Origin: a virus
Lineage: Duplodnaviria > Caudoviricetes
DNA length: 25,349 bases
Direction: 5' to 3' (one strand)
Virus record (IMG/VR): IMGVR_UViG_3300008255_000447
Span: 1-25,349 of that record
Part shown: positions 650-25,161 of the stretch, piece by piece
Position numbering within the stretch: the first letter of the stretch is position 1
Layout: every line of letters begins with the position of its first letter
Made by a program: the position numbers and the translations under genes
The notes under the pieces: generated by a model
The model's database searches: none
What the model was told of the DNA's origin: nothing
What the model saw: the letters and a program-made list of their open reading frames with translations, nothing else

Positions 650-1114
650 ATGTCTCGGATGTCGAAGATGGCGCTTGGTAAGGAGTTGGTGAAGCGAGCG
701 GGTCTGCCAACGCACGAAGGAGATGTTGTGGAGACGCCGGGAGGAGATGTAGTGACGGCGAAGGATGTTCGTCACTATTTACGGGATGGTGTTCCTGGTG
801 GTGGTAAGGCGGCGGTGAGGATACGTCGAGAGGTGGCGTCAGCGCTGGCGATGCAAACGCTGGAGAACCAGCGGATGGTGGAGGCGTTGAAGTCAGGTGG
901 TGTGACGCCGGAATTGGTAGCTGGCGTGGTGAAGGGTTGGCTGGAGCATCCGAATCCAACGGTTCAGGAGGCTGGTGTGAGATTTGCGGCGAAGGCGATG
1001 GGTTTGGACAAGCGGGTGGAGCCGGCAAGGGTAACGGAGACAGCGGAAGCGACGTTTGAGGATTTGCTGGATAGCTGCGAAGATGGTGAAGATGGCGAAG
1101 AGAACGCGGGCTGA
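650..1114 (+). CDS. terS: Terminase small subunit (putative)
   Basis: 154 aa, helical, acidic C-terminal tail; directly upstream of and overlapping terL. Mainly positional. Confidence 0.65.
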   Translation: MSRMSKMALGKELVKRAGLPTHEGDVVETPGGDVVTAKDVRHYLRDGVPGGGKAAVRIRREVASALAMQTLENQRMVEALKSGGVTPELVAGVVKGWLEHPNPTVQEAGVRFAAKAMGLDKRVEPARVTETAEATFEDLLDSCEDGEDGEENAG

Positions 1115-2849: not shown

Positions 2850-3067
2850 GCGATCTGGCCGTTGGATATCTGGTTGGGCATGTTGTCGCGTGGGTTGAGG
2901 TGGTTCTTGCGATGGTGTTTGTGCGGTGGTTGTCGCGGTCAGTCGGCGGTGTGGTGCCTGGATTTGTCGGGGTTGGGTCAGTACGGACGCACTGGGAGCC
3001 GAGTGAGCGGTCTGGAATGAGGCCGTTGCCGAACCCTGGTAGGCGAACGCCGGAAGGTGTCGCGTGA
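2846..3067 (+). CDS. Small putative membrane protein between terL and portal
   Basis: 73 aa; 4-nt overlaps with both neighbours; hydrophobic N-terminal segment LAVGYLVGHVVAWVEVVLAMVFV followed by a basic/Pro tail. Confidence 0.6.
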   Translation: MSDLAVGYLVGHVVAWVEVVLAMVFVRWLSRSVGGVVPGFVGVGSVRTHWEPSERSGMRPLPNPGRRTPEGVA

Positions 3068-5241
3068 GCATTTTGGAGCGGACCAAGGCTTTGTTTGCAG
3101 GCGTGGTGCCCGGGTCGAAGGGCGCAACGGCGTCTTCATCGGAGGCGCTGGCGAAGCAGAGCGAAGCAGAGAACACGCTGGCGTCGCTCCTGTTGGATAG
3201 GTTTCGTGCGGATACGGAGGGTGGAAACCAGGCCCACGAGAGGTATGGGCTCTACCTGGAGAGGTGGCGGCGGCGGTATCGGCTGCCGGACCGGGCCTCG
3301 TGGCGCTCGAACGTCAATACCGGAGCGGAGTTTGCGAGTATAGAGACTCAGGTTTCCATTTTGACAGCGACGCCGCTACGGCTTGAGATTCGGCCAAAGA
3401 GCAATCCGAAGCTGGCCGTTCTAGCGCCGTTCTTTCAGTCGATGTTTGACGACTGGTCAGAGCGCCATCATTTCCAGGACCAGATCGAGCGGGCCGTGCG
3501 GATCAGTCTTCTGAATTCGTGGTGTGACTCGAAAACTGGTTGGGATCCTGAGTTTGGGGGAGGCGAAGGGGACCCAGTTGTTACGATTACGGACCCGCGA
3601 AACGTGTACGTGGATCAAGAGGCGACCAGCTTTCACGGCAGAAAGCGTTACACGGAGATCGAGTGGTTCACTGCCGAGGAGATGTCCGTGCTGTTTGGGC
3701 GCTCGGCCGAGGGCCTGAGTTCACAGAACAGGTATTACGATTCTGGGCTTGGGATGGCGAGTGAGGCTGAGGGTACGAGTCAGCTCCAGAAGATCCGGGT
3801 GATCCGGGTCTGGTGGGAAGACCTATCTCGGGAGAGGGTCGAGGTTCCCTTTGCGCCACAGGAAGAGGCGGCTCCGCTGACGATTGGCGAGGATGAGCAG
3901 ATCGTTGAGGTTGAAGACAACACGTCGTCAGAGGAAAAGCTGCTCGACAAGGAGTCTGTCTGGGTCAGGAAATACCCGTCTGGTCGCGTGACGACGTTAA
4001 CCGACGAGGGAATCATCCTGGATGACCGGCCGAACCCCTATCCGGATTGGCCCCATAACCGGCTTTACAACTACGCCGACCCGCACATGGCGACTGGTAT
4101 TTCTGAGATGGATCTAACGCGAGAGATTCAGGACGTGATCGATACGTTCCTATCGAACGCCTCGGACCACATGGAGCAGCACGGGAACTACCGGATGATT
4201 CTGGAGAGTTCGACCGGGATCGACCCGGACCAGGTGACCGGGGCACCGGGGGAAATCTTCGTGCCGAACGCCGGGACCGGTCAGACGATTCGCTGGATGG
4301 AGCCGCCACCGTTGCAGGAGTGGGTTGTTCAGATCCCGGAACTGATGCGGCGATGGCACGACAACGCGACGGGTGTCCAGGACGTGATTCGTGGTGAGCG
4401 GCCGGCGGGTTTGGAGACGTTCGCAACGCTTCGGGCGCTCGAGGATTCTGGTTTGTCTCGGATCAAGCCGAAGGCGAAGAGACTTCGGGAGTTCGTCCGA
4501 CAGATTGCCCTACGGGTGATCTACATGTTCCAGACCCGATATACGACGCCGAGGAAGCTCCGCGTTTCAGGCGACAAGGGAGAGAAGCTGGTTCGCATCC
4601 TGACTGAGAACCAGGAGTTCATCGCGGAAAACTCTGGGTTGACGCCGGATGAGGATGGATTTAGCCCGGAAGATGCCATTCGGTATCTCGGCCAGTCGGG
4701 GAAGGATTTCTATTTCGAGATCATCGGGATCGGGATGAAGGGGGCCATGGATATCGAAGTTCAGTCCGGCCGGATGATCGAGAAGACTCAGGCAGAGATT
4801 GAAGCTACCGCGCTGGAGCTCTCACGAGAAGGCCACATTGACACCCAGGACTTGCTGGAGAAGATCGATTGGCCGGCCCGTGAGGGTGTTCTGGAGCGGG
4901 TTGGACAGCTTCAGCAGGCGCAGGCTCAGATTGAGCAACTGACGGCTGCGTTGCAGGAGATGCAGAATCAGATTCAAGGGCAGGGGCAGGGGCAGGCGTT
5001 TCAGGGAGCGCCGGGAGGGTCTGACCCATTGGTAGCACCGATTCCTGGAGCGGTTGACGCTGGCCCCCTGGACCCGGATCAGGAAAATCAGCTTCTGGCG
5101 GACGGCCAGTTGCTGGTGACGCATCCCGAAGACGATATTGCTCAACACATTCAGGTTCATACCGTCGCGATGCAGCAGGCGCCCGGAGAGGTTCAGCCTG
5201 TATTCGCGCAGCACATCCAGATGCACCAAGGAAGGGGGTGA
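3064..5241 (+). CDS. Portal protein, P22-like, with Gln-rich C-terminal barrel
   Basis: 725 aa after terL; portal-like segments TDPRNVYVD, KYPSGRVTT, NATGVQDVIRGERPAG; Q-rich coiled coil near the C-terminus; SD GGAAGG before GTG. Confidence 0.9.
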   Translation: MSILERTKALFAGVVPGSKGATASSSEALAKQSEAENTLASLLLDRFRADTEGGNQAHERYGLYLERWRRRYRLPDRASWRSNVNTGAEFASIETQVSILTATPLRLEIRPKSNPKLAVLAPFFQSMFDDWSERHHFQDQIERAVRISLLNSWCDSKTGWDPEFGGGEGDPVVTITDPRNVYVDQEATSFHGRKRYTEIEWFTAEEMSVLFGRSAEGLSSQNRYYDSGLGMASEAEGTSQLQKIRVIRVWWEDLSRERVEVPFAPQEEAAPLTIGEDEQIVEVEDNTSSEEKLLDKESVWVRKYPSGRVTTLTDEGIILDDRPNPYPDWPHNRLYNYADPHMATGISEMDLTREIQDVIDTFLSNASDHMEQHGNYRMILESSTGIDPDQVTGAPGEIFVPNAGTGQTIRWMEPPPLQEWVVQIPELMRRWHDNATGVQDVIRGERPAGLETFATLRALEDSGLSRIKPKAKRLREFVRQIALRVIYMFQTRYTTPRKLRVSGDKGEKLVRILTENQEFIAENSGLTPDEDGFSPEDAIRYLGQSGKDFYFEIIGIGMKGAMDIEVQSGRMIEKTQAEIEATALELSREGHIDTQDLLEKIDWPAREGVLERVGQLQQAQAQIEQLTAALQEMQNQIQGQGQGQAFQGAPGGSDPLVAPIPGAVDAGPLDPDQENQLLADGQLLVTHPEDDIAQHIQVHTVAMQQAPGEVQPVFAQHIQMHQGRG

Positions 5242-5365: not shown

Positions 5366-5392
5366 TTGCGGGTCTGATGAACTGGCCCGCAA
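5366..5392 (+). promoter_or_regulatory. Stem-loop immediately 5' of the scaffold RBS
   Basis: TTGCGGGTC / GGCCCGCAA 9-bp stem (one G-U), 9-nt loop, 3 nt before GGAGG (5396-5400); no U-tract. Confidence 0.5.
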
Positions 5393-5406
5393 ACTGGAGG
5401 AAGGAC

Positions 5407-6210
5407 ATGGCGACTGACGCCGATTCCGTTGAAGTTCCTGGCGCCGACAACGGCACTCCCAGGGGATTCGACGCCGACGAAGCAGCCATTGAGGTTGAAG
5501 TCGAAGAGACAGTCGAGACCCGGGACGAGGATCAGGAGAGCAAGCCGGAGGATCTTCAGGCGAAGGTTCGAGAACTCGAGAGAGTGAATGAGGCGCTGTC
5601 TAAGTCCGCGAAGGACACGAAGGCGGCGTTTCACCAGACGCGGCAGGAGATCGCCGAACTCAAGCGTCGGCTTGAGGATAGGCAGCCTGTCGTCGAACCA
5701 GAACCAGATGTTGACCTTGCAACGGCAATCGCCAATGGAACCGAGAAAGAAGCGCTCGATCGGCTGCTGGATGCGCGTGAACAGCGCATCCGAAAGCAGC
5801 ACGCTGATCGAGAGCAGGCCATCGCCAATCAGCTACAGGCTGAGTGGATTGACCTGGTTGACGCGGACGGTTCTGTCGGTGAGTTCAAGTCGGAGATGCA
5901 GCAACTTTCTGGAGAGTATCCCAACGCCACCCTCGGCGGCCTCTGGGTTCGATACGGCCAGGCCCTCAAGGACCGAAAGAACTGGGCCGGAAACGGCAAG
6001 GACGCCGACCGACTCCGCAGAGAAGGGGCCCTTGCGGTCGTGAACAAGGACAAGAGCAACCGGGTCGCGACCGCAACCGTTGACGCCAACGGCAAGGCGG
6101 GAGTGGCCCCAGGCAATAGAATCAAGCTGACAAAGGAAGAGGCGGACATGGCCAAGAGGTTCGGCCTGTCGCTCGCGGACTATGCCAAGTACCGGCAGAA
6201 GTCGCAGTAG
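5407..6210 (+). CDS. Capsid scaffolding protein
   Basis: SD GGAGG then ATG 5407 (MATDADS...); acidic N-terminus, coiled coil, C-terminal helix-turn-helix-like KLTKEEADMAKRFGLSLADYAKY; lies between portal and capsid genes. Confidence 0.8.
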   Translation: MATDADSVEVPGADNGTPRGFDADEAAIEVEVEETVETRDEDQESKPEDLQAKVRELERVNEALSKSAKDTKAAFHQTRQEIAELKRRLEDRQPVVEPEPDVDLATAIANGTEKEALDRLLDAREQRIRKQHADREQAIANQLQAEWIDLVDADGSVGEFKSEMQQLSGEYPNATLGGLWVRYGQALKDRKNWAGNGKDADRLRREGALAVVNKDKSNRVATATVDANGKAGVAPGNRIKLTKEEADMAKRFGLSLADYAKYRQKSQ

Positions 6211-6421: not shown

Positions 6422-7173
6422 TGCAGATTTCGAGACTGTTTCACCCCGGTGCGGCGTTCATCCGCGATCAGCGGCTCGTCGATCCGGGCGGGAGCGCTGA
6501 TATCAAGTACGGCGCCGCGCTGATGGCGGGCACCACGACGAGCCGATCGGGGCTGGTTCTCGCGTCTGGCGCCATCGCGGATTTCGCTGGCATCTGTCTG
6601 GAGGAAGCGCTGAGCGCCGCCTTCGGGACGGTCGCCCTGGGAACGCTGCTCAAGCGGAAGGTGGCGCTGGAGCCGTCCGCGCTCTACGAGGTCGAGTGCA
6701 GTCAGGCTGCGGCTGACCTGATCGCCAACGACGTGGCTAGTGCAACAGCGGGCTCTACGACGTTCACGACCGATCAGGCCGACGACTTCGACGGTGGCTG
6801 GAAGTACATCGTGACGGGAACCGGAGCCGGGCAGCTTCGCTACGTCACGGCGGCGACAACGACCGTCTTCACGAACGGCCTGACGGACTGGACCACCCAG
6901 CCTGACGCCACGAGCGACCTAATGATGATTCCGAGCCGCAACACGCAGCTTCTGGACCTTCGGGCAGACGCAACGATGTTCGCGTGCCAGAACGGGTCCA
7001 GCAGCGCAGAGGTCGGGCGCATCCACGTGGTCGAGCTGAAGATCAAGAGCGACGCCATCGCGACGACGCCGCTGGAAGAACTGACGCACGAGCTAGACGG
7101 CCTGAACACGGCCAATGTCAGGTTCTTCCTGGAAGTGTTCTTCACCAACAGCATTCTGCACAAGATCGACTAG
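6421..7173 (+). CDS. Putative capsid decoration/cement protein
   Basis: 250 aa, A/T/G-rich and beta-rich; directly upstream of the MCP; contains phage structural motif IVTGTGAGQLRYV...WTTQPDATS. Confidence 0.55.
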   Translation: MQISRLFHPGAAFIRDQRLVDPGGSADIKYGAALMAGTTTSRSGLVLASGAIADFAGICLEEALSAAFGTVALGTLLKRKVALEPSALYEVECSQAAADLIANDVASATAGSTTFTTDQADDFDGGWKYIVTGTGAGQLRYVTAATTTVFTNGLTDWTTQPDATSDLMMIPSRNTQLLDLRADATMFACQNGSSSAEVGRIHVVELKIKSDAIATTPLEELTHELDGLNTANVRFFLEVFFTNSILHKID

Positions 7174-7189
7174 GAGGAGGTGAGATCAG

Positions 7190-8095
7190 ATGACCCACAT
7201 CAGCGAAAATTGGGCAAACACCGTCGACCCTGTCATCAGGCACGTGTTCGACACGTCCCTTATGGGCATGACGAAGGACTGGGTGTCTCGCCTCTACCGT
7301 GTCGAGACCTCGGATCGGAGTATCGAGAGGTCTCTGGGTGTCGGCGGCTTCTCGGATCTCCAGGCCCACAACGGCGAGGCTCAGGAACTGCTCAGCTACG
7401 AGCAGTACCTCCAGACGTACACGCACAGCGAGTATTCCGGCCTGATCACCATCGAGAAGAAGTGGCTCGAGGACGACCTGACCGGAACGGCGAAGTCGAG
7501 GGCCGAGGGCGCTGCCGGCGCGTGGTTTCGCACCCGTCAGAAGCACGCGGCGAGCATCTTCGAAGAGGCATTCACAACGACCCGTGGCGCCGATTCGCTG
7601 GCTCTCTGCGCCTCGGCGCACACGAGCAAGACGCCTGGCGTCGCGGTCCAGAGCAACACAGGGACCGCAACGCTCACGTCGGCAAACATCGTGGCCGGCC
7701 AGAACAACATGAACGTCTACAAAGACGATCAGGGCGAGCTCATGTCGTCCAACGGAACGCTGGTTCTGGCTGGCAACGCTCAGCGGGAGACGCTCTCGAA
7801 GATCCTGAAGAGTGTTCACGTCCACGGATCAGCCAACTACGATCCGAGCATCGGCCGCGAGACGTTCGATGGCGACGACCTGAAGGGCGTGATCTGGAAC
7901 CGGATCACCGGCAACAAGTGGTTCCTCATCGACGAGCAGATGATGAAGACGATGCTTCGCTGGTACGACCGCGTGAAGAAGGAGATCGTCCGAGATGTCG
8001 CCTTCAAGCAGAGGGCGGCGCAGTGGATGGTATACGGTCGATGGAGCTACGGCTTCGATGACTGGCGCTGGATCTACGGTAACAACCCCGGCTAA
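7190..8095 (+). CDS. Major capsid protein (HK97 fold, resembling the Mu gpT-like head subunit family)
   Basis: 301 aa; strongest SD in the window (AGGAGGAGGT); strong codon bias; motifs YSGLITIEKKWLEDD, DSLALCASAH, KWFLID, RWSYGFDDWRWIYG. Confidence 0.88.
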   Translation: MTHISENWANTVDPVIRHVFDTSLMGMTKDWVSRLYRVETSDRSIERSLGVGGFSDLQAHNGEAQELLSYEQYLQTYTHSEYSGLITIEKKWLEDDLTGTAKSRAEGAAGAWFRTRQKHAASIFEEAFTTTRGADSLALCASAHTSKTPGVAVQSNTGTATLTSANIVAGQNNMNVYKDDQGELMSSNGTLVLAGNAQRETLSKILKSVHVHGSANYDPSIGRETFDGDDLKGVIWNRITGNKWFLIDEQMMKTMLRWYDRVKKEIVRDVAFKQRAAQWMVYGRWSYGFDDWRWIYGNNPG

Positions 8096-8159: not shown

Positions 8160-9293
8160 ATGCGAACCACCCTTTGGGGGCTTTCGGCCCTGCTTGTTCT
8201 GGCGGTAATCGTTCATGCCGGGACGACGAACTTCGACTCGCTTGGGCTGTCCGGCGACCTGACCGTCACCGGCGATGCAACCGTCACAGGAGACCTCGCG
8301 GTCACCGGCGCTCAGACGTTCGCGGGTAATCAGGCAGTAGCGGGAAACCTCGACGTTACCGGCGCCACGACGGCCACGACGGCGACTTTCACGGGAGCTG
8401 TCACTGTCAACGACGGCAGCAATCCAAGCTCCGACTTCCGGGTCGAGAGCAACGGGCAGACTGACGCACTTTTCGTGGATGCGTCAACCGACCGGGTAGG
8501 TGTCCTCACTAGCGTACCGACTCACGACTTTGAGGTGGATGGCGCTGTCGGCATGGCCTCCACGCTCCAGGTGACGGGCAACGTCAACTTCGACGGTACG
8601 CTCGACATTGCCGGCGCAACCCAGGTCGACGATGACTTCAACGTTACTGGGTCAACGACGGTCGTTGGTCTGGCAGCGACCGGCCATACAACCGTAGTCA
8701 GCCTGACCGGATCGGGTCGTATCTCTACCTCGGATGTTACGCAGATGCGCGTAACTGAGTTCATACCCTGGCAAGACTTCGTGACTGGCCAGGTTACCGG
8801 CGCCTCGACGGTCTTTTCTGGCTTTGGTGCTGGATCGCCCGTTACCACAGCCACAGAGCTTGGTGGCGCGGGTGGTCTTGGTGGCTTTCTTGTCGGTGCA
8901 GCAAGTGATGAGTTTGAAACCTTGTGGAACATCCCATTCGACTTCGATCGAACCCAGGATACAACCTTCTTTGTCCTGTTCTACGTTGACGCGGAAGCTG
9001 AAAGCGGCGATTCGATCACGTGGTCGCTAGACTACGCCGAGATTGTCCCGGGTACGACAGTCATCGGTGACCCGGCAACCGCCCCAAACACAGACTTCTC
9101 TGCGGCGGCATGGGCTGCTGATGGTGTGGTACAGGGATCTGGTATGCCACCGGCTACGATCAACGGCGGCACCATTGGCGCAACGACTTCACTACTGCAT
9201 CTTGAGTTCATCGTTGCCACCCTGACGAATTACAGTGCGGATGAAGTGACGTTCGTCGGTGTGGTCGTGAACTACGGAAAACTGTTCCTGTGA
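8160..9293 (+). CDS. Head-fibre-like structural protein with N-terminal signal peptide
   Basis: 377 aa after the MCP; SD GGAG; MRTT-LWGLSALLVLAVI-VHA|GTTNF; 6-aa repeats GDLTVT/GDATVT/GDLAVT; beta-rich C-terminal domain. Confidence 0.7.
   Translation: MRTTLWGLSALLVLAVIVHAGTTNFDSLGLSGDLTVTGDATVTGDLAVTGAQTFAGNQAVAGNLDVTGATTATTATFTGAVTVNDGSNPSSDFRVESNGQTDALFVDASTDRVGVLTSVPTHDFEVDGAVGMASTLQVTGNVNFDGTLDIAGATQVDDDFNVTGSTTVVGLAATGHTTVVSLTGSGRISTSDVTQMRVTEFIPWQDFVTGQVTGASTVFSGFGAGSPVTTATELGGAGGLGGFLVGAASDEFETLWNIPFDFDRTQDTTFFVLFYVDAEAESGDSITWSLDYAEIVPGTTVIGDPATAPNTDFSAAAWAADGVVQGSGMPPATINGGTIGATTSLLHLEFIVATLTNYSADEVTFVGVVVNYGKLFL
8253..8378 (+). repeat. Seven degenerate 18-bp (6-aa) coding repeats, beta-helix-like
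   Basis: GDLTVT GDATVT GDLAVT GAQTFA GNQAVA GNLDVT GATTAT. Confidence 0.7.
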
Positions 9294-9508
9294 TGGCTCT
9301 GGATCTTGTTCGTCTTCGGCAGCAGATCAACCAGCGGATGCGTCCGTTTGGTCAGTCGAAGATGCGCGGGCTTGACCCCTCGAGGGTCAACAGGATCACC
9401 GAAACGGTCCCCGTGAAGTTCTGCGGCAACTGCAACAGGCGGTCGGCCCTCTACCTCCCGCAGTGGGCGGAGTACCGGTGTATCTATTGCGATCGCCAGG
9501 TGAAGTGA
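9290..9508 (+). CDS. Small zinc-ribbon-like protein
   Basis: 72 aa, basic, CGNC-x15-CIYC; coupled to the upstream stop. Confidence 0.7.
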   Translation: MMALDLVRLRQQINQRMRPFGQSKMRGLDPSRVNRITETVPVKFCGNCNRRSALYLPQWAEYRCIYCDRQVK

Positions 9509-9512
9509 GGCC

Positions 9513-9800
9513 ATGTCAAACGCAACTCTCGTTATCGCCACAAGCCAGGTTTTCACGGTTGCAACGACCATCTACAAGGTGGTCGTTGTTGCGGCCGCTG
9601 ACGCCGCCGAGGTGACGATTCGAGACAACGCGAACGTGCTTCTTGTCCCGCTTGCGGATGGACAGAAGGCCGCCCACCTGAAGGCGGCTCTCGGGACAAG
9701 CGTCAACTTCGACTGGCACTGCGGGCTGAGCCTCCATAGCGGGTGCCACGTAACCATCAATTCCGGTACGGGAGTCGAAGTCTGGATCTACACGAGATGA
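9513..9800 (+). CDS. Hypothetical beta-rich structural protein
   Basis: 95 aa, V/A/T-rich; tight spacing within the operon. Confidence 0.7.
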   Translation: MSNATLVIATSQVFTVATTIYKVVVVAAADAAEVTIRDNANVLLVPLADGQKAAHLKAALGTSVNFDWHCGLSLHSGCHVTINSGTGVEVWIYTR

Positions 9801-9804
9801 GTCG

Positions 9805-10722
9805 ATGTCCACCGTCAACGAACTTGTCTCGAACCTGAAGAATCGGCTCAGGGACCAGCAGGCCGACACCTACATCCTTCAGGCCATCAACTGGTGCCGC
9901 CGGGATATCGTGACCCGGCGCAACTGGGCGTGGGCGCAGACGCTTGTGGGTGGGCTTCGGACTCTTGGTCCGGCAACGATCACGGATGACGTGACCGTCA
10001 CGCTCGAGGGAACGTCGGTCACCGTAGCAACGGCTGACGACTCGATGGACCAGCTTGTCACAGATGTTGCGGCCGGCATTGAGCCTCATGTGACGTTCAC
10101 GCTGGGAGGGGACCGCTTCTATCGAGTGACGGCGGCAACCGGTTCAGGACCCTACACCCTGAGCATCACGCCGGGATACTTCGGCGCCAGCTCAGCGGCA
10201 GAGGACATGGTGATCTACTTTCGGGAGTACGCACTCACGAGCGGAACACGCAAGATCGCAAACGTGGTCGGCGAGGATGGGCACACGCTAGGGCTGAGGA
10301 CCTTGAGCGAGATTGCCTACGCCAACGGCGAGCCAACGGAATCGACAGGACAGCCGAGGTTCTACGCCGTCCGCGGTGGGATGACTCCGACTCTCATCCT
10401 GGACCCGATACCCGATGACAACTACTCGATCGCGTTCGACCGGATCGGGGCGCTTACTGATGTTTCCGTTAACGGTACCGAGGCCTCGGTGGTTGTGCCT
10501 GCGGAGTGGCATTTCGTGATCGAGGAGGGGGCGCTCTATTTCCTCCGCAGGGATGTGAAGGATGATGACCGGTGGGCTGACACTCGAGACATGTACTTGG
10601 AATACCTCGGTCGGATGGAGCGGGCCGACCTGACTGGTGGGTTCGCAAGCTCGGGTGGCGTGATTCACGCGACGAGGAGCCGTCACGGGATGGCCCAGCA
10701 GAGGCGGGCAAGTCGATCGTGA
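9805..10722 (+). CDS. Head-tail adaptor (P22 gp4 / T7 gp11 equivalent) with inserted beta domain
   Basis: N-terminal helices TVNELVSNLKNRL...AINWCRRDI...WAW; GQPRFYA...LILDPIPDDNYSI; VPAEWHFVIEEGALY; located before the nozzle gene. Confidence 0.78.
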   Translation: MSTVNELVSNLKNRLRDQQADTYILQAINWCRRDIVTRRNWAWAQTLVGGLRTLGPATITDDVTVTLEGTSVTVATADDSMDQLVTDVAAGIEPHVTFTLGGDRFYRVTAATGSGPYTLSITPGYFGASSAAEDMVIYFREYALTSGTRKIANVVGEDGHTLGLRTLSEIAYANGEPTESTGQPRFYAVRGGMTPTLILDPIPDDNYSIAFDRIGALTDVSVNGTEASVVVPAEWHFVIEEGALYFLRRDVKDDDRWADTRDMYLEYLGRMERADLTGGFASSGGVIHATRSRHGMAQQRRASRS

Positions 10723-12260
10723 CCTACCGCGGCAACATCGTGACGTTTGATCCGATGATCGAAGGGCTCTATGACACGAAGAATCCTGTTGAGCTTGGAA
10801 ACCACACGCCGGAGTGTTACAACGCCAGGTTTTTTCCGACGCACGTTGAGAAGCGGAGTGGGATGTCGTCGGTTCATGATGCGGTGGCTGCCGGGAAGAC
10901 CGGCATTGGTGGCTGGTACTTCACGACGGCGGCTGGCGCAGGCCGAAACATCGTCGTGGATGAGGATGGGGTGATCTATGGCGACGACACCGGGGCGTGG
11001 GTTGCTCGGACTGGATCTGTAACGCTTTCAGTGACATCCAGTTCTCGCGTTCACTTCTGCACGTTCGACGACAAGATCGTCGGCACGGACAACGCCACCA
11101 CACCGTTTCGTTGGGACGGGTCTTCTGATAGCGCCGCCGTCCTGACCGGCACACCGCCCGCCCGGGCGAAGTACATGGCGACATTCGCGAATCGACTTCT
11201 CGCGATCAATTTCACGGAGAACGGAGGCGTGACCGTACGAAATGACGGCATCGCCTACAGCGCCATCAATGATCTCAACAGTTGGGGGGCGTCGGACTTT
11301 CTGAGGATCCAGCAGGCCGGCGGAAAACCGATAACAGGGGTTGGCTATAAGACCGATAGCCTGCTGATCTTCTTCGAGAACAACGTGTTCGAACTGACGG
11401 ATAGCGGCAACGAGCTGATTCCTTTCCAGGCGTCGCTCTACACGGCCGGGCTTGGGCTGAAAGCTGGGTATGCCGTCTTCAGTCGAAACGGTCGCGTGAT
11501 CGGGTGGACGGCGCGGGGGCCGGTTGACTTCTCGAATCCTGATCCGGTCTATCTCGGCGAGAAGATTCGTCAGACGGTTGCCGATGTGGACTACTCGAAC
11601 GCGGAGCTCTTTGCTGCCGTTGTGTCCCAGAAAAACGAGACGGTCCGGTTCTGCGTTCGCAATAACGACAGCACCGAGAACGACCTGATCATGGTCCTTA
11701 ACCCTCAAACTGGGGTTTGGTCTCGGGACAACGGATATGCCATCGAGGCGGGATGGGAGGCGTTGAACTCTGCCGGCCAGTGGGTCGCTTACGGGATCTC
11801 CACGGATCGGGTCTACGAGTTCGACACGGGCCAGGAGGACGCCACGCCGTCGACGAACGCCACGGCGTCGATCGTCTTTGATATCTGGACCCCGTGGTAT
11901 GACTTCCGCGGCCGGGTTGACGGGCAGGGCCCGATGACGCACAAGATTTGGCAGGAGTTCCAGTTGCTCTACCGCGAGGAGACAGACGGAAACTTCGACC
12001 TCGGCTATCAGCTCGCGCTGCTTCCTGGTGAGCGGGTTACTGAAAGCGTGGCGATGATCGGGCGCGAGAATGCGCTGATCTGGGATGATGGGATCTGGGG
12101 GGTCGACATCTGGGGAGGGTCCGGGGATGCGCCCGCAGAAAGCCGCCTCTTTCTGGATGGGTCGTCAACCCACATCCGATTTCGAATTGTCAACGATGAC
12201 GACAAGGACGTGACCCTGCTGGGGCACACAGTGGCCTTCAAGGGGACAGGCAGTCTATGA
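10719..12260 (+). CDS. Tail nozzle / tail tubular protein B (P22 gp10 / T7 gp12 equivalent), beta-propeller
   Basis: 513 aa; motifs ATFANRLLA, IAYSAINDLNSW, GKPITGV, LLIFFENNVF; Trp repeat WDDGIWGVDIWGG near the C-terminus; follows the adaptor. Confidence 0.82.
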   Translation: MTYRGNIVTFDPMIEGLYDTKNPVELGNHTPECYNARFFPTHVEKRSGMSSVHDAVAAGKTGIGGWYFTTAAGAGRNIVVDEDGVIYGDDTGAWVARTGSVTLSVTSSSRVHFCTFDDKIVGTDNATTPFRWDGSSDSAAVLTGTPPARAKYMATFANRLLAINFTENGGVTVRNDGIAYSAINDLNSWGASDFLRIQQAGGKPITGVGYKTDSLLIFFENNVFELTDSGNELIPFQASLYTAGLGLKAGYAVFSRNGRVIGWTARGPVDFSNPDPVYLGEKIRQTVADVDYSNAELFAAVVSQKNETVRFCVRNNDSTENDLIMVLNPQTGVWSRDNGYAIEAGWEALNSAGQWVAYGISTDRVYEFDTGQEDATPSTNATASIVFDIWTPWYDFRGRVDGQGPMTHKIWQEFQLLYREETDGNFDLGYQLALLPGERVTESVAMIGRENALIWDDGIWGVDIWGGSGDAPAESRLFLDGSSTHIRFRIVNDDDKDVTLLGHTVAFKGTGSL

Positions 12261-12592
12261 GCCGGATCACCTTCAACAAGCAGAACATCGCCGAGACCGT
12301 TCGCGGCCTGGTGGCTCTCGTCAACGGGAAGATCAGCCTGGGAACTCGGGTGAACCCAGGGAATCTGGCGGCCGTCCCGGTTGATTTCACCGTCACGGGC
12401 GGCAACGAGAATACGGATCAAGCGGTGGCTCACAAGCTGGGCAGGCCGCCGGCGGGCTGGATCGTCGTTGGTCAGACGGTTGCCGGGATCGTTTACGACT
12501 CCTCCGCGTCGCCGTATAATGACAACTGGAGCGACACGTCAATCGAGCTCCGGGCCGATACGGCAGGCACCTACAGGCTGGTGATCTTCTGA
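12257..12592 (+). CDS. Small tail protein (needle/knob position)
   Basis: 111 aa; short helix then beta domain with VAHKLGRPPAGWIVV; coupled to nozzle and fibre genes. Confidence 0.6.
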   Translation: MSRITFNKQNIAETVRGLVALVNGKISLGTRVNPGNLAAVPVDFTVTGGNENTDQAVAHKLGRPPAGWIVVGQTVAGIVYDSSASPYNDNWSDTSIELRADTAGTYRLVIF

Positions 12593-14193
12593 TGCGAGAG
12601 CGCGTTGCGCTGGCTTTTCTTGGGGCGATTCTGGCGATCCTGATCTTCGTTGGGATGGGGGCCCGCCCCACGGCGATGAACACGTTTGTTTCTGGGACGG
12701 TAGCGAATCCGTCTCTGGTGAATGCGAACTTCACGAGTCTGTTCAATCCGCTCAACGGGAACATCGACGCGGGGAATCTCTCGACTGGGGCTGTCCTGAC
12801 TACCAACGTCGCCGACAACGCGATCACGCTGGCGAAGATCGCGGACATGAATTCGGGGCAGATCATCGTGACGGCCAGTTCCGGGGCCCCAACGGCGACA
12901 ACTCTCACGGGTGACGTGACAATCGGGCCGACTGGGGTTACCACGCTTGCGGCCAATTCTGTGGCGACCGGCGACATTGTCGATGGCACGATCATCGCAG
13001 CAGACATCGCGACGGGCGCCGTGATAACAGCCAAGATCCTTGACGGCACGATCGTCGCTGACGATATTGCCACTGGCGCGGTTACGACTGCGAAGATTCT
13101 CGATAACACGATCATCGCTGGGGACATCGCCACTGGGGCTGTGGCGACCGCTGAGATCCTTGACGGCACGCTCATCGCAGCCGACATCGCAACTGGCGCT
13201 GTTGCGACAGCAGAGATTCTCGATAACACGATCATCGCAGCCGACATCGCAACTGGCGGTGTCGCCACGGCCGAGATCCTTGACGGCACCATCCTCAACG
13301 AGGACATCTCTGCATCAGCGGCAATCGCCCTCTCGAAGCTCGCCACGCCGGTTGTCACGGCATCGTCTTCCAGCACTAGCAAGGTGGCAAAGTTCGTCAG
13401 TGGGAACCGGGTTGGTGACAGTCGAATCTCCGACAATGGGTCGGGTGACGTGTCGATCTCGACGGGGCTTGACCTTGGCGTGAATGAGCTGACGGCTGGC
13501 ACAGCGACAATTTCCACGATATCGCGTGCTAGCCCTGGGATGGTCGGGCTCAGTGCGGCCGGGATCGACTTCAATGACCTCTACATGTTCATCCCCGAGG
13601 GGACTGACTTTCCTACTGGCTCCGGGGCCTCCCCCTACTTCGACAACTTTCGGATCGCCCGTGCTCTCCCGATGTTCTACGACCCGGAAATGCTGGATGA
13701 CCGCTGGCTCGTCCCGGAGGCACACGACAACGTGCCGTTTACCAGCAAGCACTTGCTGAGCAGTGATTTCTTCGGCGAGAGTGTCCCGCCTTCATCCGAG
13801 GTCGCGTGGAACTTTCTGATTCCTCAGAACGTGGACAGCACGGTTGCCGCAACAATCCAGATCAATTGCTGGACGACTCAATCTGCTGACGCTCGCTTCG
13901 ACCACAACTCGGCAAGGTGGGCGTCTGGCGCCACGTATACCGCACCGACAGGGATATCGGCGGTCGCGTGGACTTCGACCTTTACGGCCAACCAGATCCT
14001 TGTGATCAATCAGTCGATCACCCTGACGCCAACGGCGGGTGACGTGTTCAGTAGTTTTGTGCGTCGTATCGGTGGTGATGCCGCAGACACGCTGACAACG
14101 GATATTCGGGTGATCGGCGCCGGGCTGCGGATAACTCGCTCCAGCGGTGAGGTGGACATCATCCAGCCGTGCGCCACAACTCACATTCACTAG
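12592..14193 (+). CDS. Tail fibre / receptor-binding protein with N-terminal signal peptide
   Basis: MRER-VALAFLGAILAILIFV-GMGA, then fibre-anchor-like NTFVSGTVANPSLVNANF, 20-aa shaft repeats and a beta-rich head; TGATG coupling supports Met1. Confidence 0.82.
   Translation: MRERVALAFLGAILAILIFVGMGARPTAMNTFVSGTVANPSLVNANFTSLFNPLNGNIDAGNLSTGAVLTTNVADNAITLAKIADMNSGQIIVTASSGAPTATTLTGDVTIGPTGVTTLAANSVATGDIVDGTIIAADIATGAVITAKILDGTIVADDIATGAVTTAKILDNTIIAGDIATGAVATAEILDGTLIAADIATGAVATAEILDNTIIAADIATGGVATAEILDGTILNEDISASAAIALSKLATPVVTASSSSTSKVAKFVSGNRVGDSRISDNGSGDVSISTGLDLGVNELTAGTATISTISRASPGMVGLSAAGIDFNDLYMFIPEGTDFPTGSGASPYFDNFRIARALPMFYDPEMLDDRWLVPEAHDNVPFTSKHLLSSDFFGESVPPSSEVAWNFLIPQNVDSTVAATIQINCWTTQSADARFDHNSARWASGATYTAPTGISAVAWTSTFTANQILVINQSITLTPTAGDVFSSFVRRIGGDAADTLTTDIRVIGAGLRITRSSGEVDIIQPCATTHIH
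12961..13310 (+). repeat. Tandem 60-bp (20-aa) coding repeats, about 6 copies, in the fibre shaft
   Basis: I(L/V)D(G/N)T(I/L)(I/V)AxDIATG(A/G)VxTA(K/E); consecutive 60-nt sequence lines align. Confidence 0.92.
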
Positions 14194-14200
14194 GAGAATC

Positions 14201-14572
14201 ATGCGAACCATCATTATCTTTTCACTCGTGTTTATGGCCGCCGTCCTTCCGGGGCTGGTTTTGGCCCAAGATGTTCCCGTGACCGTGGGCGGTATTCACG
14301 TCTCGGTCCCCGAGGCTCGGTTTCGGGCGCTCCTGGCTGGACTCGACGGGCCGTCCCGGCAGCGTCTGGAGACGGGGAAGGCTCGGGCCCGCATGGAGAC
14401 CGCCTGCAACTCGGTAGCCCAGAAGGCGGCTCGGATCAACTCGCTTAGAGACTACTTGGCGGCAGAGGACTTCGCCGCCATCGCCGCTGCGCTCGACGTT
14501 GGAATTGCCGCGGGTGAAGCTGAACGGGATCGGCGCAGCTCCGAGCCTCCGACTCCGGTAGTGACGCGGTAG
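14201..14572 (+). CDS. Secreted helical protein downstream of the tail fibre (possible fibre chaperone/partner)
   Basis: SD AGGAG at 14192-14196, ATG 14201; MRT-IIIFSLVFMAAVLPGL-VLA|QD signal peptide; 123 aa. Confidence 0.7.
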   Translation: MRTIIIFSLVFMAAVLPGLVLAQDVPVTVGGIHVSVPEARFRALLAGLDGPSRQRLETGKARARMETACNSVAQKAARINSLRDYLAAEDFAAIAAALDVGIAAGEAERDRRSSEPPTPVVTR

Positions 14573-15720
14573 TGGTCAACATCGGCAGCCTGATCGGCCT
14601 TGGCATAAGCCTCTTCGGTGGCGGGAAAACCAAGGCCACAAAAACGGAGGGGCCGATTCCGGTCTCACCTCCGCCGGGGATCTTTGACTCTCCGACCGGC
14701 TTTCTCGGGCTGCCGACCAGAACGCGATTCGACGATCGGGATCGCGTTGCCGCGCTGAACGCGCTCAAGAGCACGCAGAACGTGGCGCAGGCTGAGGCCA
14801 TGCTTGCGTCCAATCCTGGAGCCCTCACCATCCTCCGGCGTGTCACGCAGGAGATGGGCCTCCTACTGGCCAACCGGGGAACACTGTCCGACGCAGAGGT
14901 CGTCAAGCAGTCCGTCGTCAGGCTTGGGCTTCCTAACGCGCTCGCCTTTCAGGACCTCGGAACGGACCAGTTCGAAACGCTCCAGGATCGGCTTGCGTTG
15001 CCGGGGCCGGCCACGGAGCTCTTTCGCCGGTCTCAGGGGCAAATGAGTTCTACGACGCCGGGCAATGTCCGGGAGGACCCGGCGCTTGTTGCTGAAGCGG
15101 CCCGGCTTCAAGAGATCGGAGGTGGGCGCATCCAGGCGCTCATGGGTGGGGCTCTGCAAGGCGAATTCCCGAGCCTGTACGCTCATCTTCAAGGAGAAGC
15201 CTCTCGGCAGCAAGCCTCGGGGCGTAGCCCTGGTCACCCCGATGCTGTGGCTGCGATGCAGGCCGAGGTTGACCGGCTGTCCGGGCTTTCGTCACGGACG
15301 GGGCCGACCGGTCAGCAGTTGCCGGTTTCCGGCGCCAGGGAGACCGACGCCCTTCTTCCGAAAAGCATGAGCCCGGAGGATGTAGCCGGCGGTCGACGAA
15401 CGGTCGATCCCGGAACGTTCTCGCGGCTGAAGTCGTCGGTCGGCTCCCTCCCCGGAATAGGACCTACGACGTTCCAGCGGCCAGCGGGTGGCGGGCAGCC
15501 TCCAGGGCCGGCCCCGACGCCGTTCCCTACGAGGCAGGCCCCGCAGGTGCCAGCCGGTGGCGCGGCCGAAGCTTTCCGGCGCGAGCGCGGCGGATTGCCC
15601 GGTGTGAATATGTCGCCGGTTGCTGACCCGGCCGGCGCTGGTGGGTTTGCCGAAAGAATTCGCTCGGGGCGATTCACGCCAGAAGACATCGCCGAACTCA
15701 TGAAAGGGCAGATGAGATGA
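14572..15720 (+). CDS. Putative ejection (internal virion) protein 1
   Basis: Gly-rich hydrophobic N-terminus IGSLIGLGISLFGGGK typical of pilot/ejection proteins; low-complexity G/P/A body; located after the tail genes. Confidence 0.6.
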   Translation: MVNIGSLIGLGISLFGGGKTKATKTEGPIPVSPPPGIFDSPTGFLGLPTRTRFDDRDRVAALNALKSTQNVAQAEAMLASNPGALTILRRVTQEMGLLLANRGTLSDAEVVKQSVVRLGLPNALAFQDLGTDQFETLQDRLALPGPATELFRRSQGQMSSTTPGNVREDPALVAEAARLQEIGGGRIQALMGGALQGEFPSLYAHLQGEASRQQASGRSPGHPDAVAAMQAEVDRLSGLSSRTGPTGQQLPVSGARETDALLPKSMSPEDVAGGRRTVDPGTFSRLKSSVGSLPGIGPTTFQRPAGGGQPPGPAPTPFPTRQAPQVPAGGAAEAFRRERGGLPGVNMSPVADPAGAGGFAERIRSGRFTPEDIAELMKGQMR

Positions 15721-17322
15721 ATGGTTGACGGCCCCTTCAGTAGACGACGGCGACCGAGGCAGATGGACCTGTCGCTCGGGCAGCCTCCGAGTGCGCTTCG
15801 GCCGGCCGGGACGAACCGGGACCCGGCGCAGCCTCGGCCGGTCGGCACGCCGCCAACCTCGAACATCGGCATGAACAGGACCGAGTCGTTCCATCGGCGA
15901 GCGTCGCTTGCTCAGCCCGCTGGGCTGCGCGCCGGCGGAGGTAGCCCGCCGCCGGGGACGCCCGGGATCTTCGACATCCTCCGAGGCGTCAATTCTGGCT
16001 TTCGCCCGACCGGAGACGTTTCGACCGGTTCGGCTCTTGGGTCTCAGCTCGACACCTTCAACAGCCAGCGAAACAGGAACATGCGATCTGGCATTGGCGG
16101 GGGCGGTGGGCTGAGGCCGGAGACTGTATCGCCGGCCACACAGCCAGCCCGCCCGCCGGCCACCCCGCCGGGGACGCCTGTCGGTTCTTCCGTGCCGCCT
16201 GGAGCCATCGCCCCGGGCGCATCGCCGACGAACCCCGTAACGATTCCACAGGCACCAGCAAGCGCCGTGCAGCTCCCAGGCGCGGTGTCGCTTCCGGACC
16301 CGCAGAGCTTCGTTCGTCAAGGGCTGCAAACCTTCGACGCGGACGCGACGGTCCAGAACCAGCGCCAGATGGACGCGCTGCTTTCCGACCTCAACCGCCT
16401 TGGCGTCAACTCGCCACGTGTTGCCGATGCGGTCATGCGGAACGTGCTTGAGCCCAGCAACAGAAACCGGATGCTCCTCCAGTTCGAGTTGGAGAAGGAG
16501 GCCGAGGCGAGCCGGCAGGCCAATGCCCGGGACGAGTTCGGACTCAACCTCGACAGGTTCCAGGCTGGTCGGGTGTCTGAGGGGCAGTCCTTCTCCGAGG
16601 GTTTGCAGCGGTTCCATGCTGGTGAGAGCCAGGCCGGACGGCTCGGCGCCGAGGAGTTGGCCCGGTTCGAGTCTGGCCGCAACGTCGTCCAGCAGGATCG
16701 CGAGTTCGCTATCCAGCAGCGGGCGCAGGAGCTTCAGGCTCAGGGACAGTCCTTCGATCAGGCTGTCCGGGCCGCAACGACGGAGTTCGACCTGCGTGAA
16801 GGTGAGCAGCGTATTGGGCTCAACCAGATGCAGGCGAATCTTGCCGCCGAGCAGCAGTCATTCAATCAACAGATGGAGGCGTTCCGGGAGGGCAGGGCAA
16901 CCACGGAGCAACTTGAGGCGTCGGCTATTCGGGCCTTCCAGGCAGAACTCGGGGCGCGACAGCAGACGTTCGAGAACGAGGTCACCAAGCTCCAGCTTGA
17001 GGCCGGGCTTTCCCAGGCAGAGGCTGCGGAAGCCAGGGCAGCATTTCAGCAGTACATGGACTATCGCCGGAACGAGCAAAACGCCCTTCTGGAACTTACG
17101 AAGCTGTCGAGCCTCGAAGGCGCGGAGCGGGACCGGGCACTGCTGGAGCTGTTCCAGACGTCGGGGGCCTTCATCGAGGGCGCCATCACGAGGGCAATGC
17201 AGGCCAGAACGGCGGCTGCGGATACCCGGTCAACGAACCTGGAGGCTGACGCGGCGGCGCTGTCGGCCGAGAACACGCGAATCGCGGGCATCGGCGATCA
17301 GATTGCGGGGGTGTTCTCGTAA
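15721..17322 (+). CDS. Putative ejection protein 2 (DNA conduit), long helical repeat region
   Basis: 533 aa; disordered Pro/Gly N-half, Q/E/A-rich helical C-half with 18-aa periodicity. Confidence 0.62.
   Translation: MVDGPFSRRRRPRQMDLSLGQPPSALRPAGTNRDPAQPRPVGTPPTSNIGMNRTESFHRRASLAQPAGLRAGGGSPPPGTPGIFDILRGVNSGFRPTGDVSTGSALGSQLDTFNSQRNRNMRSGIGGGGGLRPETVSPATQPARPPATPPGTPVGSSVPPGAIAPGASPTNPVTIPQAPASAVQLPGAVSLPDPQSFVRQGLQTFDADATVQNQRQMDALLSDLNRLGVNSPRVADAVMRNVLEPSNRNRMLLQFELEKEAEASRQANARDEFGLNLDRFQAGRVSEGQSFSEGLQRFHAGESQAGRLGAEELARFESGRNVVQQDREFAIQQRAQELQAQGQSFDQAVRAATTEFDLREGEQRIGLNQMQANLAAEQQSFNQQMEAFREGRATTEQLEASAIRAFQAELGARQQTFENEVTKLQLEAGLSQAEAAEARAAFQQYMDYRRNEQNALLELTKLSSLEGAERDRALLELFQTSGAFIEGAITRAMQARTAAADTRSTNLEADAAALSAENTRIAGIGDQIAGVFS
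16555..16986 (+). repeat. Eight degenerate 18-aa helical repeats
   Basis: RFQAGRVSEGQSFSEGLQ / RFHAGESQAGRLGAEELA / RFESGRNVVQQDREFAIQ / QRAQELQAQGQSFDQAVR / AATTEFDLREGEQRIGLN / QMQANLAAEQQSFNQQME / AFREGRATTEQLEASAIR / AFQAELGARQQTFENEVT. Confidence 0.7.
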
Positions 17323-18536
17323 TGCCAAGCAACAGATTTCTGGTGACAACGGTTCCGGAGGCCTATTCTCGATTTCAGAACGAGCGATCGGAGCGTGACA
17401 AGAACGCTTCGTCGGCGGAATTGAACCGGGCATCAGCGAAGCGCCAGGAGGTCGAGGGGCGGCTTGCGGAGATGAAGATCCAGGCCGAGCGGGTAGGGAT
17501 CAGCGAGAAGATGTTTGACCTGTCGGTTCGCCAAGCATTGATGGGCGAGCCCGACTTGCTGAACTCCATCGACGATATGACTCGAACGTTAGGCCAGTCG
17601 TCGCCGGGTGGTGGTGGGTCTTCAATGTCGGCGCCGGAGCCGGAAACTTTCCAGCGGGAGGGGCTCACCCAGCCTGTTGCCGGGCAGGCCGCCGGCGCCA
17701 CGGCGACGCCGTTTCAGCCGTCGGGGTCCATCACGGACGCGGCGAGGCAAGGATCTGGCCTTGATTCGTTTCGCCCCACCGGCCTCATGGGGCAGTTGCG
17801 CGACAGGGCTGGTGTCGGCGGCGCCCAAGGGAAGGCTCTCGAATTTCTCATGCTTGAGAACTTCTCGAAGGACCCCGGTAAATTCGTTCGCATCCCGGGC
17901 CAGATTGGTAAGGACGTGGCGGGAACATTCTCACGTGAGAGTGCGGGGAATCTTAGCCGGTCGCGACAGGCGGAAGTCGAGACGCTTACGCCGCTTCGTG
18001 CGGGACTTCTCCGGGAGCGTACAGGCTCAGCATCACGGGCAAACCGGCCTTCCGCGCCATCTTCGTTGACGCCGGAACAGCAGACCATTCAGAAGCAACG
18101 GCTTGAGGCATCGATGATGCATGCAGAGGCTGAGCTTTTGAAAGGCAAAGCGAACTTGATGGAGGCCGAACGTCGATTTAAGGCAGTGATAACGCCCGCC
18201 GCGCCGGACGAAAGAACGGCAACGTCTCTGGCGCAAGAGCGGAAAGAGCGGGAGCGGGAATACCGCCAGAAGGTTGCCGCCGGGAACCGGCTCCGGGCAG
18301 AGTTGAAAGCCTACCGGTTCAAAACGTTGACCAGTGAAGAGCAAGACAAGGTGTTTCGTCTCACCGAGAACATCCGGCTTTTTGGTGAGGAAGCACAGAT
18401 GGCCCTTGACGGTCTCCCGCCACCGACAGGAGCCACGCAGCCGACAGCACCAGTATCGCCGGCGGCAGCACCGGCGCCAGGGGACCGCGGCCGGGCCATT
18501 CAGTTCATCATCGACAACGCCCGCCGGAGGCCGTAA
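17322..18536 (+). CDS. Putative ejection protein 3
   Basis: 404 aa; coiled coils with flexible linkers; TAATG coupling at both ends. Confidence 0.58.
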   Translation: MPSNRFLVTTVPEAYSRFQNERSERDKNASSAELNRASAKRQEVEGRLAEMKIQAERVGISEKMFDLSVRQALMGEPDLLNSIDDMTRTLGQSSPGGGGSSMSAPEPETFQREGLTQPVAGQAAGATATPFQPSGSITDAARQGSGLDSFRPTGLMGQLRDRAGVGGAQGKALEFLMLENFSKDPGKFVRIPGQIGKDVAGTFSRESAGNLSRSRQAEVETLTPLRAGLLRERTGSASRANRPSAPSSLTPEQQTIQKQRLEASMMHAEAELLKGKANLMEAERRFKAVITPAAPDERTATSLAQERKEREREYRQKVAAGNRLRAELKAYRFKTLTSEEQDKVFRLTENIRLFGEEAQMALDGLPPPTGATQPTAPVSPAAAPAPGDRGRAIQFIIDNARRRP

Positions 18537-24335: not shown

Positions 24336-24338
24336 ACC

Positions 24339-25135: not shown

Positions 25136-25161
25136 ACTACTGACCGAGGAGGTCATCGACC

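Follow-up and report, generated by a model that had tools for sequence, protein, structure and literature searches.

Several phage proteins use the host Sec route, among them the signal-arrest-release (SAR) endolysins, the spanins and the proteins Llp, Cor and Lom. Attachment of an appendage can also be the last, separable step of virion assembly, as with fibreless T4 particles, to which fibres are added in vitro, and the P22 tailspike, which is added to finished particles in the same way. The present analysis concerns a viral contig of 25,349 bp (IMG/VR record IMGVR_UViG_3300008255_000447), which is a single contig, was analysed as the entire record and is called the window below. Its G+C content is about 60%, and all long open reading frames (ORFs) lie on the plus strand, arranged as the late module of an uncultured short-tailed phage. 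Three genes of this module, starting at positions 8160, 12592 and 14201, encode a fibre-like protein of 377 amino acids (aa), a 533-aa tail fibre and a small 123-aa protein, and each product begins with a putative export signal, referred to here as the leader.

The tail of phage SU10 offers the comparison for docking. In the available text on its structure, the fibres dock by their extreme N-termini, residues 3-6 and 23-25 of the short fibre on the nozzle and the N-termini of the long fibres on the adaptor, and the contacts are hydrophobic, with Ile24 set against Trp side chains (PMC9509320). In the window both the portal and the adaptor families were found above their Pfam cut-offs, indicating a podophage tail of the SU10/P22-like type. 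An export signal on a late phage protein is described for Oenococcus phage fOg44, whose endolysin Lys44 has a signal peptide; the available text of that report was considered as a precedent for exported fibres and set aside, because the signal peptides in it are on endolysins (PMC8878798). Full-text searches that combined signal peptides with tail fibres or tailspikes listed no paper describing exported tail fibres, subscription journals not being covered.

Three leaders among the late genes

The N-termini of the three proteins read MRTTLWGLSALLVLAVIVHA/GTTNF (8160), MRERVALAFLGAILAILIFVGMGARPTAM (12592) and MRTIIIFSLVFMAAVLPGLVLA/QDVPV (14201), where a slash marks the predicted cleavage. Each starts with Met-Arg, continues with an uncharged hydrophobic core and ends in a small-residue site. 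The n-regions are MR, MRER and MR, with a net charge of +1 ahead of the core in all three. The uncharged core has 14 residues in the 8160 product, 16-20 in the fibre, which falls in the range of membrane anchors, and 13-19 in the 14201 product, where about 13 precede a Pro-Gly break; the h-region of a Sec signal has roughly 7-15 residues. Cleavage sites were predicted at VHA/G (8160), at PGLVLA/Q with its helix-breaking PG (14201) and at GMG/A (fibre), and in VHA/G, VLA/Q and GMG/A alike positions -3 and -1 are occupied by small residues while +1 is not Pro. An earlier reading made without database searches (the sequence-only reading) had already described Met-Arg, a hydrophobic core and a small-residue site in all three ORFs, and this description was confirmed. 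Its details for the fibre had to be corrected: the core was put at 13-16 aa, while the uncharged stretch is actually 20 residues long (aa 5-24), and the site was placed at MGA/R, where Met at -3 breaks the -3/-1 rule that GMG/A, one residue earlier, obeys. Lipoprotein and Tat signals were also considered for the three leaders and rejected, as there is no lipobox Cys at +1 and no RR pair.

The best 15-residue Kyte-Doolittle mean within the first 30 residues was 2.46 for the 8160 product, 3.02 for the fibre and 2.52 for the 14201 product. The same measure was at most 1.09 for the portal, scaffold, capsid, adaptor, nozzle and internal proteins, with the exception of the 382-aa protein encoded at 14572 (1.83). 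A leader test was then set up that asks for a net positive n-region, an uncharged core (10 or more residues, mean hydropathy 2 or higher) and a small-residue site at -3/-1. It flagged three of the 23 likely genes and the cut ORF at 25162, as against two of the 144 other six-frame ORFs of at least 50 aa, and it was passed by 21, 73 and 102 of 5000 shuffles of the three proteins (0.4-2%). None of the capsid, portal, adaptor and nozzle proteins was flagged, in agreement with the sequence-only reading, which had called them leaderless. Judged from their sequences, the leaders have the three-part layout of Sec signals cleaved by signal peptidase I, and they are found only on the fibre-type proteins and one small neighbour.

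The starts of the three genes are preceded by Shine-Dalgarno-like ribosome-binding sites: GGAG at 7 nucleotides (nt) from the ATG of 8160, GGTGA at 7 nt from the ATG of 12592, which overlaps the upstream TGA, and AGGAG at 4 nt from the ATG of 14201. Within the first 70 codons of gene 8160 no other in-frame ATG, GTG or TTG occurs, which obliges its product to carry the leader. All three leader genes open with ATG CGA (8160-8168, 12592-12600 and 14201-14209), which none of the 18 other likely genes does; in the window genes, CGA accounts for 13% of the codons for Arg and for 1% of codons overall. This shared start may be due to chance or may be a feature of initiation. Terminator-like matches inside the leader-coding DNA were dismissed, six being found where 4.4 were expected.

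The tail fibre and its relatives

Behind its putative leader, the 533-aa fibre has a conserved motif near the N-terminus (aa ~31-50), followed by DIATGAV-type repeats (aa ~60-310); for its C-terminal domain no relatives were detected. It matched phrog_892 (4.3e-11) and phrog_28766 (3.3e-9), both named 'tail fiber protein', and phrog_35419 (9.7e-5), and by tblastn 15 cyanopodovirus records, some of them annotated as tail fiber, matched its residues ~31-237. The identity as a tail fibre proposed in the sequence-only reading was thus upheld by the PHROG families and by the cyanopodovirus tail fibres. A total of 1194 database homologues cover the central repeats only. Among the 119 matches listed, 15 repeat homologues pass the leader test, two of which are named as proteins of Bacteroidota metagenome-assembled genomes (MAGs), and the rest mostly start with MTVRKYSS…, like ordinary phage fibres. 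The gene follows the nozzle gene and a 111-aa gene with overlapping stop and start codons, and has in-frame ATGs at codons 22 and 29. A match to a fibre of phage S-TIP37 was considered as a guide to the true start and rejected, since the alignment begins about 78 residues into the S-TIP37 protein. A sequence search of the PDB gave nothing meaningful for the 533-aa fibre, for the 377-aa protein or for the fibre of the related contig L013 described below.

Relatives of the phage were sought through the nozzle. A full HMMER scan gave 233 nozzle relatives at E<=1e-3, the nearest two being 41% and 37% identical, no close nozzle relative was found in viral contigs or in species genomes, and a word-based homologue search turned up no nozzle relative. 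Cultured phages showed only weak portal and nozzle similarity to the window; a kinship with the Tunturi phages of Acidobacteriota was rejected for the same reason. The sole viral contig found with an alignment of the next-nearest nozzle group was L013, from a distant phage that is syntenic with the window: terminase, portal and capsid are followed by a small protein of the zinc-ribbon kind, SU10_adaptor, a nozzle that matches phrog_3287 and is about 24% identical to the window nozzle, a 112-aa ORF and a fibre. The L013 fibre ATG overlaps the upstream TGA, as at 12592 in the window. Its N-terminus, MKSCWQFVVLVSAVALLSAGALA/NN, is a textbook leader with the site SAGALA/N and is unrelated in sequence to the leader of the window fibre. 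The protein belongs with tail proteins (phrog_8763 'tail protein', E 8e-42; phrog_8469 'tail fiber protein', E 1.5e-16), and its residues 44-86 align to residues 41-83 of the window fibre with 37% identity (E 4e-5). Alternative starts are present only inside its leader or at codon 46, within the conserved motif.

With the L013 fibre as query, 34 further loci were found in viral contigs; an ORF with a start could be read in 31 of them, and the start was leader-like in 2 of the 31 (L097 and L128). Many of the leaderless homologues begin with MPRNGSGT… and are of the phrog_8763 type (contigs L096-L106 and L113). For a closer comparison, residues 1-100 of the fibres of window and L013 were aligned with MAFFT to eight leaderless homologues, seven of them starting with MPRNGSGT and one being a shorter reading of that N-terminus. 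Every leaderless row showed a gap of at least 20 columns exactly opposite the hydrophobic segments, and directly behind the leader region the motif (T/S)(F/Y)xSGxxI…VNxNF was aligned in 10 of 10 rows. The leaderless homologues align from the residues just past the leader, which makes the leader an add-on in front of a conserved fibre N-terminus. This N-terminus thus occurs in related phages both in leader-bearing and in leaderless form. One of the leaderless contigs, L106, has a fibre of one collar-like tip family with that of L013. Between its nozzle and fibre genes L106 carries an HNH/endonuclease VII-type gene (6532-7254; phrog_1035, E 1e-26), where the window and L013 have the 111-aa and 112-aa genes.

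The 377-aa and 123-aa proteins

The 377-aa protein is built of beta-strand repeats, an FRVESNG…LFVDASTDRVG motif and a C-terminal domain of no identified family. It had eight non-self matches, several of which include the FRVE…VDASTDRVG region and none of which has a leader. The nearest ESM Atlas clusters, among the rows shown, were viral except for the lowest-ranked feature row (Bacteroidota); as the scores were below 0.9, the viral neighbours are a lead only. A single-sequence AlphaFold2 fold had a mean predicted local distance difference test score (pLDDT) of 38. The label of head fibre given to this protein in the sequence-only reading was not sustained: no head-fibre or decoration family was matched, and the position after the capsid gene was its sole basis. 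That slot is variable, being occupied by the 377-aa protein with its leader in the window, by a leaderless 319-aa protein in L106 (1589-2548) and by a 166-aa protein in L013 (7332-7832), and the occupants in L106 and L013 are leaderless and unrelated to the 377-aa protein. Tails of the SU10 type bear two sets of fibres, and both are on the tail in the available description (PMC9509320).

The 123-aa protein had no match above noise in Pfam, PHROG or NCBIfam and Atlas scores below 0.8, and no counterpart was found downstream of the L013 or L106 fibre. The stop codon of its gene overlaps the start of the next gene (14572). The role of helper or chaperone suggested for it earlier likewise found no backing, neither in a chaperone family match nor in a conserved pairing with the fibre in L013 or L106. 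The protein may still be a periplasmic helper of the fibre, a guess from its position and the shared compartment.

Predicted docking of the fibre on the nozzle

A complex was predicted from the nozzle and three copies of fibre residues 25-100, on alignments of 19 and 10 rows, respectively; its score was 0.60 (runs 0.62, 0.59 and 0.60), the best of three controls scoring 0.00. Contact agreement in the runs was at least 90% and the partner pLDDT at least 77. In the calibration, 116 of 157 solved complexes attained the mark, as did 2 of 215 mismatched pairs; those that attained it with a score of 0.60 or less were only 18 of the solved complexes, together with both passing mismatches. The prediction used custom alignments and three copies, unlike the calibration, and likeness to solved podophage tails could contribute to its score. 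It lends weak support to a docking of the fibre's N-terminal region on the nozzle. By analogy with SU10, we infer that the conserved fibre motif would be the docking part. Given that SU10 fibres dock by their extreme N-termini, the leader would need to be removed before docking, and a signal-peptidase site would provide for that.

Leaders on other tail proteins

Leader-like starts were also found on fibre-family proteins in other settings: L128 has one in a baseplate module of the myovirus type, L097 has one next to an endolysin, and in L006 one follows a tape-measure gene. In the nozzle family, which is a core part of the tail, 16 of 150 representatives have a leader-like start before the conserved GGLNT motif (P0130, P0131, P0134, P0139, P0140, P0146, P0156, P0160, P0161, P0165, P0183, P0188, P0197, P0211, P0245 and, doubtfully, P0180). 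The nozzle bore a leader in 2 of 16 inspected loci (L014 and L021), where several neighbouring ORFs are leader-like too. The window nozzle and its nearest relatives have no leader-like start.

A proposed export route and its alternatives

We propose that the three late-gene products are Sec substrates and that the fibres fold outside the cytoplasm and meet fibreless particles once the holin opens the membrane; from the sequences, the chances of this appear evenly balanced. The leaders would carry the 377-aa, 533-aa and 123-aa proteins across the cytoplasmic membrane, and signal peptidase I would cleave after A20 in the 8160 product, after A22 in the 14201 product and after G23 or A24 in the fibre. 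Cleavage would free the conserved N-terminus of the fibre, the extreme N-terminus being the docking part in SU10. The fibres would then fold in the periplasm or envelope and would attach to fibreless particles built in the cytoplasm after holin action, when the membrane is breached at lysis. A fuller version, which we hold tentatively and at somewhat less than an even chance, is a virion assembly divided between two compartments: head, portal, adaptor and nozzle would be cytoplasmic, both fibre sets would be exported by Sec, cleaved and trimerised in the periplasm, where a dedicated helper might assist one of the two, and the parts would be joined between holin triggering and rupture of the envelope, the leader being a portable add-on gained and lost by phage lineages.

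A number of observations weigh against this proposal. The leader test is a home-made rule set and not a trained predictor, and the uncharged 20-residue stretch of the fibre is long enough for an uncleaved membrane anchor. The three proteins contain 0, 2 and 1 Cys, which gives little sign of periplasm-dependent chemistry. In the fibre gene, the ATG of codon 29 (12676) would give a leaderless product, MNTFVSG…, beginning at the conserved motif, albeit with a poor upstream ribosome-binding site. The 25.3-kb contig is an incomplete genome, and a leaderless fibre gene could lie outside it. The nearest two nozzle relatives are known as proteins only, which places their fibre genes outside the comparison. 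L013 has neither a 123-aa partner nor a leader gene after the capsid gene, so the set of three leaders is not conserved. In L106, where the capsid protein is 27% identical and the gene order is equal, a fibre of the same family occupies the post-nozzle slot but is leaderless. Leaderless proteins are also the majority, with 104 of the 119 listed repeat homologues and 29 of the 31 tip homologues; together with L106 they indicate that export is not needed for this fibre fold. The co-occurrence of leaders in related phages, suggested earlier as a check, was accordingly found only in part, the fibre of L013 having a leader and that of L106 none, and the set of three not being conserved. Finally, in a crude tally over 18 loci of the wider nozzle family, leader-like ORFs were not generally more frequent downstream (7 of 129) than upstream (17 of 211) of the nozzle, although the choice of starts in it was rough and it carries little weight either way.

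The leaders could also be explained by proteins that never enter the virion. In this case the products would be fibre-derived proteins, exported or anchored in the envelope to mask or occupy the receptor, to exclude superinfecting phages or to keep released particles off the dying cell, and the fibre stretch would be an uncleaved signal-anchor. Receptor-blocking proteins that are exported and encoded next to fibre genes are known in T5 Llp, Cor and lambda Lom, and the 20-residue h-region of the fibre with its weak cleavage site would fit such a role. Leader-bearing repeat homologues are moreover common among apparently cellular proteins (the 15 of the 119 listed, with the two from Bacteroidota MAGs), and Bdellovibrio is described, in the available text, with phage-fibre-like MAT (mosaic adhesive trimer) proteins that have a signal peptide and stand on its own surface (PMC10769870). 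However, this would leave no leaderless fibre candidate in the structural module of the window or of L013, and the leader-bearing fibres retain the N-terminal motif of the leaderless tail fibres. The leader genes are also translationally coupled in a late operon, their products lack a lipobox, and the predicted nozzle-fibre complex adds weak support for a place in the virion, so that a function confined to the envelope is considered unlikely. Still less probable is that the hydrophobic N-termini are not export signals and that the fibres stay in the cytoplasm, the helix acting in trimer nucleation, in docking to a tail pocket or in gathering the fibres at the inner face of the membrane. To our knowledge, the textbook tailed phages all assemble their fibres in the cytoplasm. 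The hydrophobic contacts by which the extreme N-termini of SU10 fibres dock, as far as they are described in the available text, would also agree with such a helix (PMC9509320). A docking helix needs, however, neither the full n/h/c layout nor small residues at -3/-1 right after the core nor the helix breakers of PGLVLA/Q and, in L013, SAGALA/N. Between the window and L013 the leaders have unrelated sequences, yet the motif that follows is conserved; the leaderless homologues dock without such a segment, and the 123-aa protein has the same kind of leader.

Two further explanations concern the starts. The fibre gene could have two products, an exported form from 12592 and a leaderless virion fibre from the ATG at 12676. 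Codon 29 is indeed an ATG, and the MNTFVSG… product would begin at the conserved motif like the leaderless homologues, but the sequence upstream of 12676, GGGGCCCGCCCCACGGCG, contains no well-spaced Shine-Dalgarno match. There is no such internal start in gene 8160 or in the L013 fibre gene, so two products cannot be the general answer, and this explanation is regarded as improbable. That the stretches are untranslated or meaningless, by chance or through mis-called starts, is given hardly any credence. The contig is GC-rich with many spurious ORFs, and two of the 144 control ORFs did pass the leader test; this possibility is largely refuted by the good ribosome-binding sites, the lack of an alternative start in 8160, the recurrence at the same slot in L013 and the add-on pattern of the alignment.

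Other genes of the window

The annotated features are collected in Table 1. The same phage (100% identical over the nozzle) was found by a metagenome scan on a 26,787-bp contig, which is about 1.4 kb longer than the window at the right end.

Table 1. Genes of the late module in the window
Feature	Position (nt)	Strand	Basis
Large terminase	1056-2849	+	phrog_2
Portal, no leader	3064-5241	+	PF16510 P22_portal 49.8 bits (cut-off 26.1); PF23899 SU10_portal 47.8 bits (cut-off 30)
Scaffold-like protein	5377-6210	+	position
Major capsid protein, no leader	7190-8095	+	phrog_371 E 5e-12; 27% identity to L106 capsid
377-aa fibre-like protein, putative leader aa 1-20 (nt 8160-8219)	8160-9293	+	phrog_697 'structural protein' E 4.2e-7
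Adaptor, no leader	9805-10722	+	PF24175 SU10_adaptor 43.8 bits (cut-off 27)
Nozzle-type tail protein, no leader	10719-12260	+	phrog_3287 E 2.9e-17
111-aa protein, no leader	12257-12592	+	position between nozzle and fibre; start and stop codons overlap both neighbours
533-aa tail fibre, putative leader aa 1-23/24 (nt 12592-12663)	12592-14193	+	PHROG tail fiber families
123-aa protein, putative 22-aa leader (nt 14201-14266)	14201-14572	+	ORF; no family match
Four large low-complexity proteins	14572-23908	+	no family match; presumably internal/ejection proteins

The N-terminus of the nozzle, MTYRGNIVTF, is not hydrophobic. The 111-aa protein between nozzle and fibre, at whose place L013 carries the 112-aa ORF, had no match in Pfam, PHROG and further family searches; judged from its position, it is possibly a needle or plug. 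The four consecutive proteins behind the 123-aa gene (382, 533, 404 and 1790 aa) contain no Cys and are enriched in Pro, Gln and Ala. The first of them opens with the mildly hydrophobic MVNIGSLIGLGISLF, and its L013 counterpart likewise (MDWLSLVPSALSAVSSLF).

A 73-aa ORF (2846-3067) exactly fills the space from terminase to portal, and stop and start codons overlap at both of its ends. Its N-terminal half is strongly hydrophobic (2.26) but has a negative n-region and is not leader-like, and no family was matched. Just upstream of the adaptor region, 9290-9508 encodes a 72-aa zinc-ribbon-like protein with four Cys (45, 48, 64 and 67), and a Cys-containing 88-aa ORF occupies the equivalent place in L013 (7829-8095). 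The right end (23944-25349) is the probable lysis region, although its proteins matched no endolysin, holin or spanin family in the PHROG, Pfam and NCBIfam searches. It encodes a 122-aa coiled-coil protein with a hydrophobic segment at the C-terminus (23967-24335) and a 195-aa protein that belongs to no known family (24339-24926); from 25162 to the end follows a cut holin-like ORF with two hydrophobic segments, which passes the leader test.

Implications and comparison with known systems

In the textbook view, tailed phages are assembled wholly in the cytoplasm. Should receptor-binding fibres routinely mature outside it, fibre annotation would be affected, as leader-bearing fibres may be dismissed as host-like surface proteins. 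Expression of such fibres for engineering or host-range work would need the periplasm and the correct mature N-terminus, and the view of the last assembly steps and of lysis timing would change. Related phages that share this fibre N-terminus but differ in having a leader or none provide a clean natural experiment on the question.

The SU10 tail (Kuravirus), with its portal, adaptor gp11, nozzle gp17, long fibres gp12/gp13 and short fibre gp16, resembles the tail encoded in the window in its portal and adaptor Pfam families and in having two fibre-type proteins encoded beside adaptor and nozzle. SU10 fibres attach by the N-terminus, which is the leader-bearing end in the window phage. The gene order of SU10 is unlike that of the window, no leader on its fibres came to light, and the docking through residues 3-6 and 23-25 suggests, in the available text, that its fibre N-termini are uncleaved, the two phages being compared here by description and not by sequence (PMC9509320). 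The leaderless fibres of the phrog_8763 type beginning with MPRNGSGT… share the N-terminal motif with the window fibre and, in L106, the slot after the nozzle, and differ in starting at the motif, without a leader. In the addition of appendages to T4 and P22 particles in vitro, both partners are made in the cytoplasm, in contrast to the route proposed here. Phage proteins of the Lys44 type, which take the Sec route, have an N-terminal export signal like the three proteins described here and are expressed late or from inside the late region, but serve in lysis or at the host surface and are not structural fibres. The MAT fibres of Bdellovibrio bacteriovorus come close in another respect, being phage-fibre-like trimers with a signal peptide that function outside the cytoplasm. 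As described in the available text, they are encoded by the bacterium, not in a phage morphogenesis operon, and are displayed on its surface through a conserved N-terminal domain of ~130 aa, not as parts of a virion; since they work outside the cytoplasm and have a signal peptide, they indicate that phage-like fibres can fold after export (PMC10769870).

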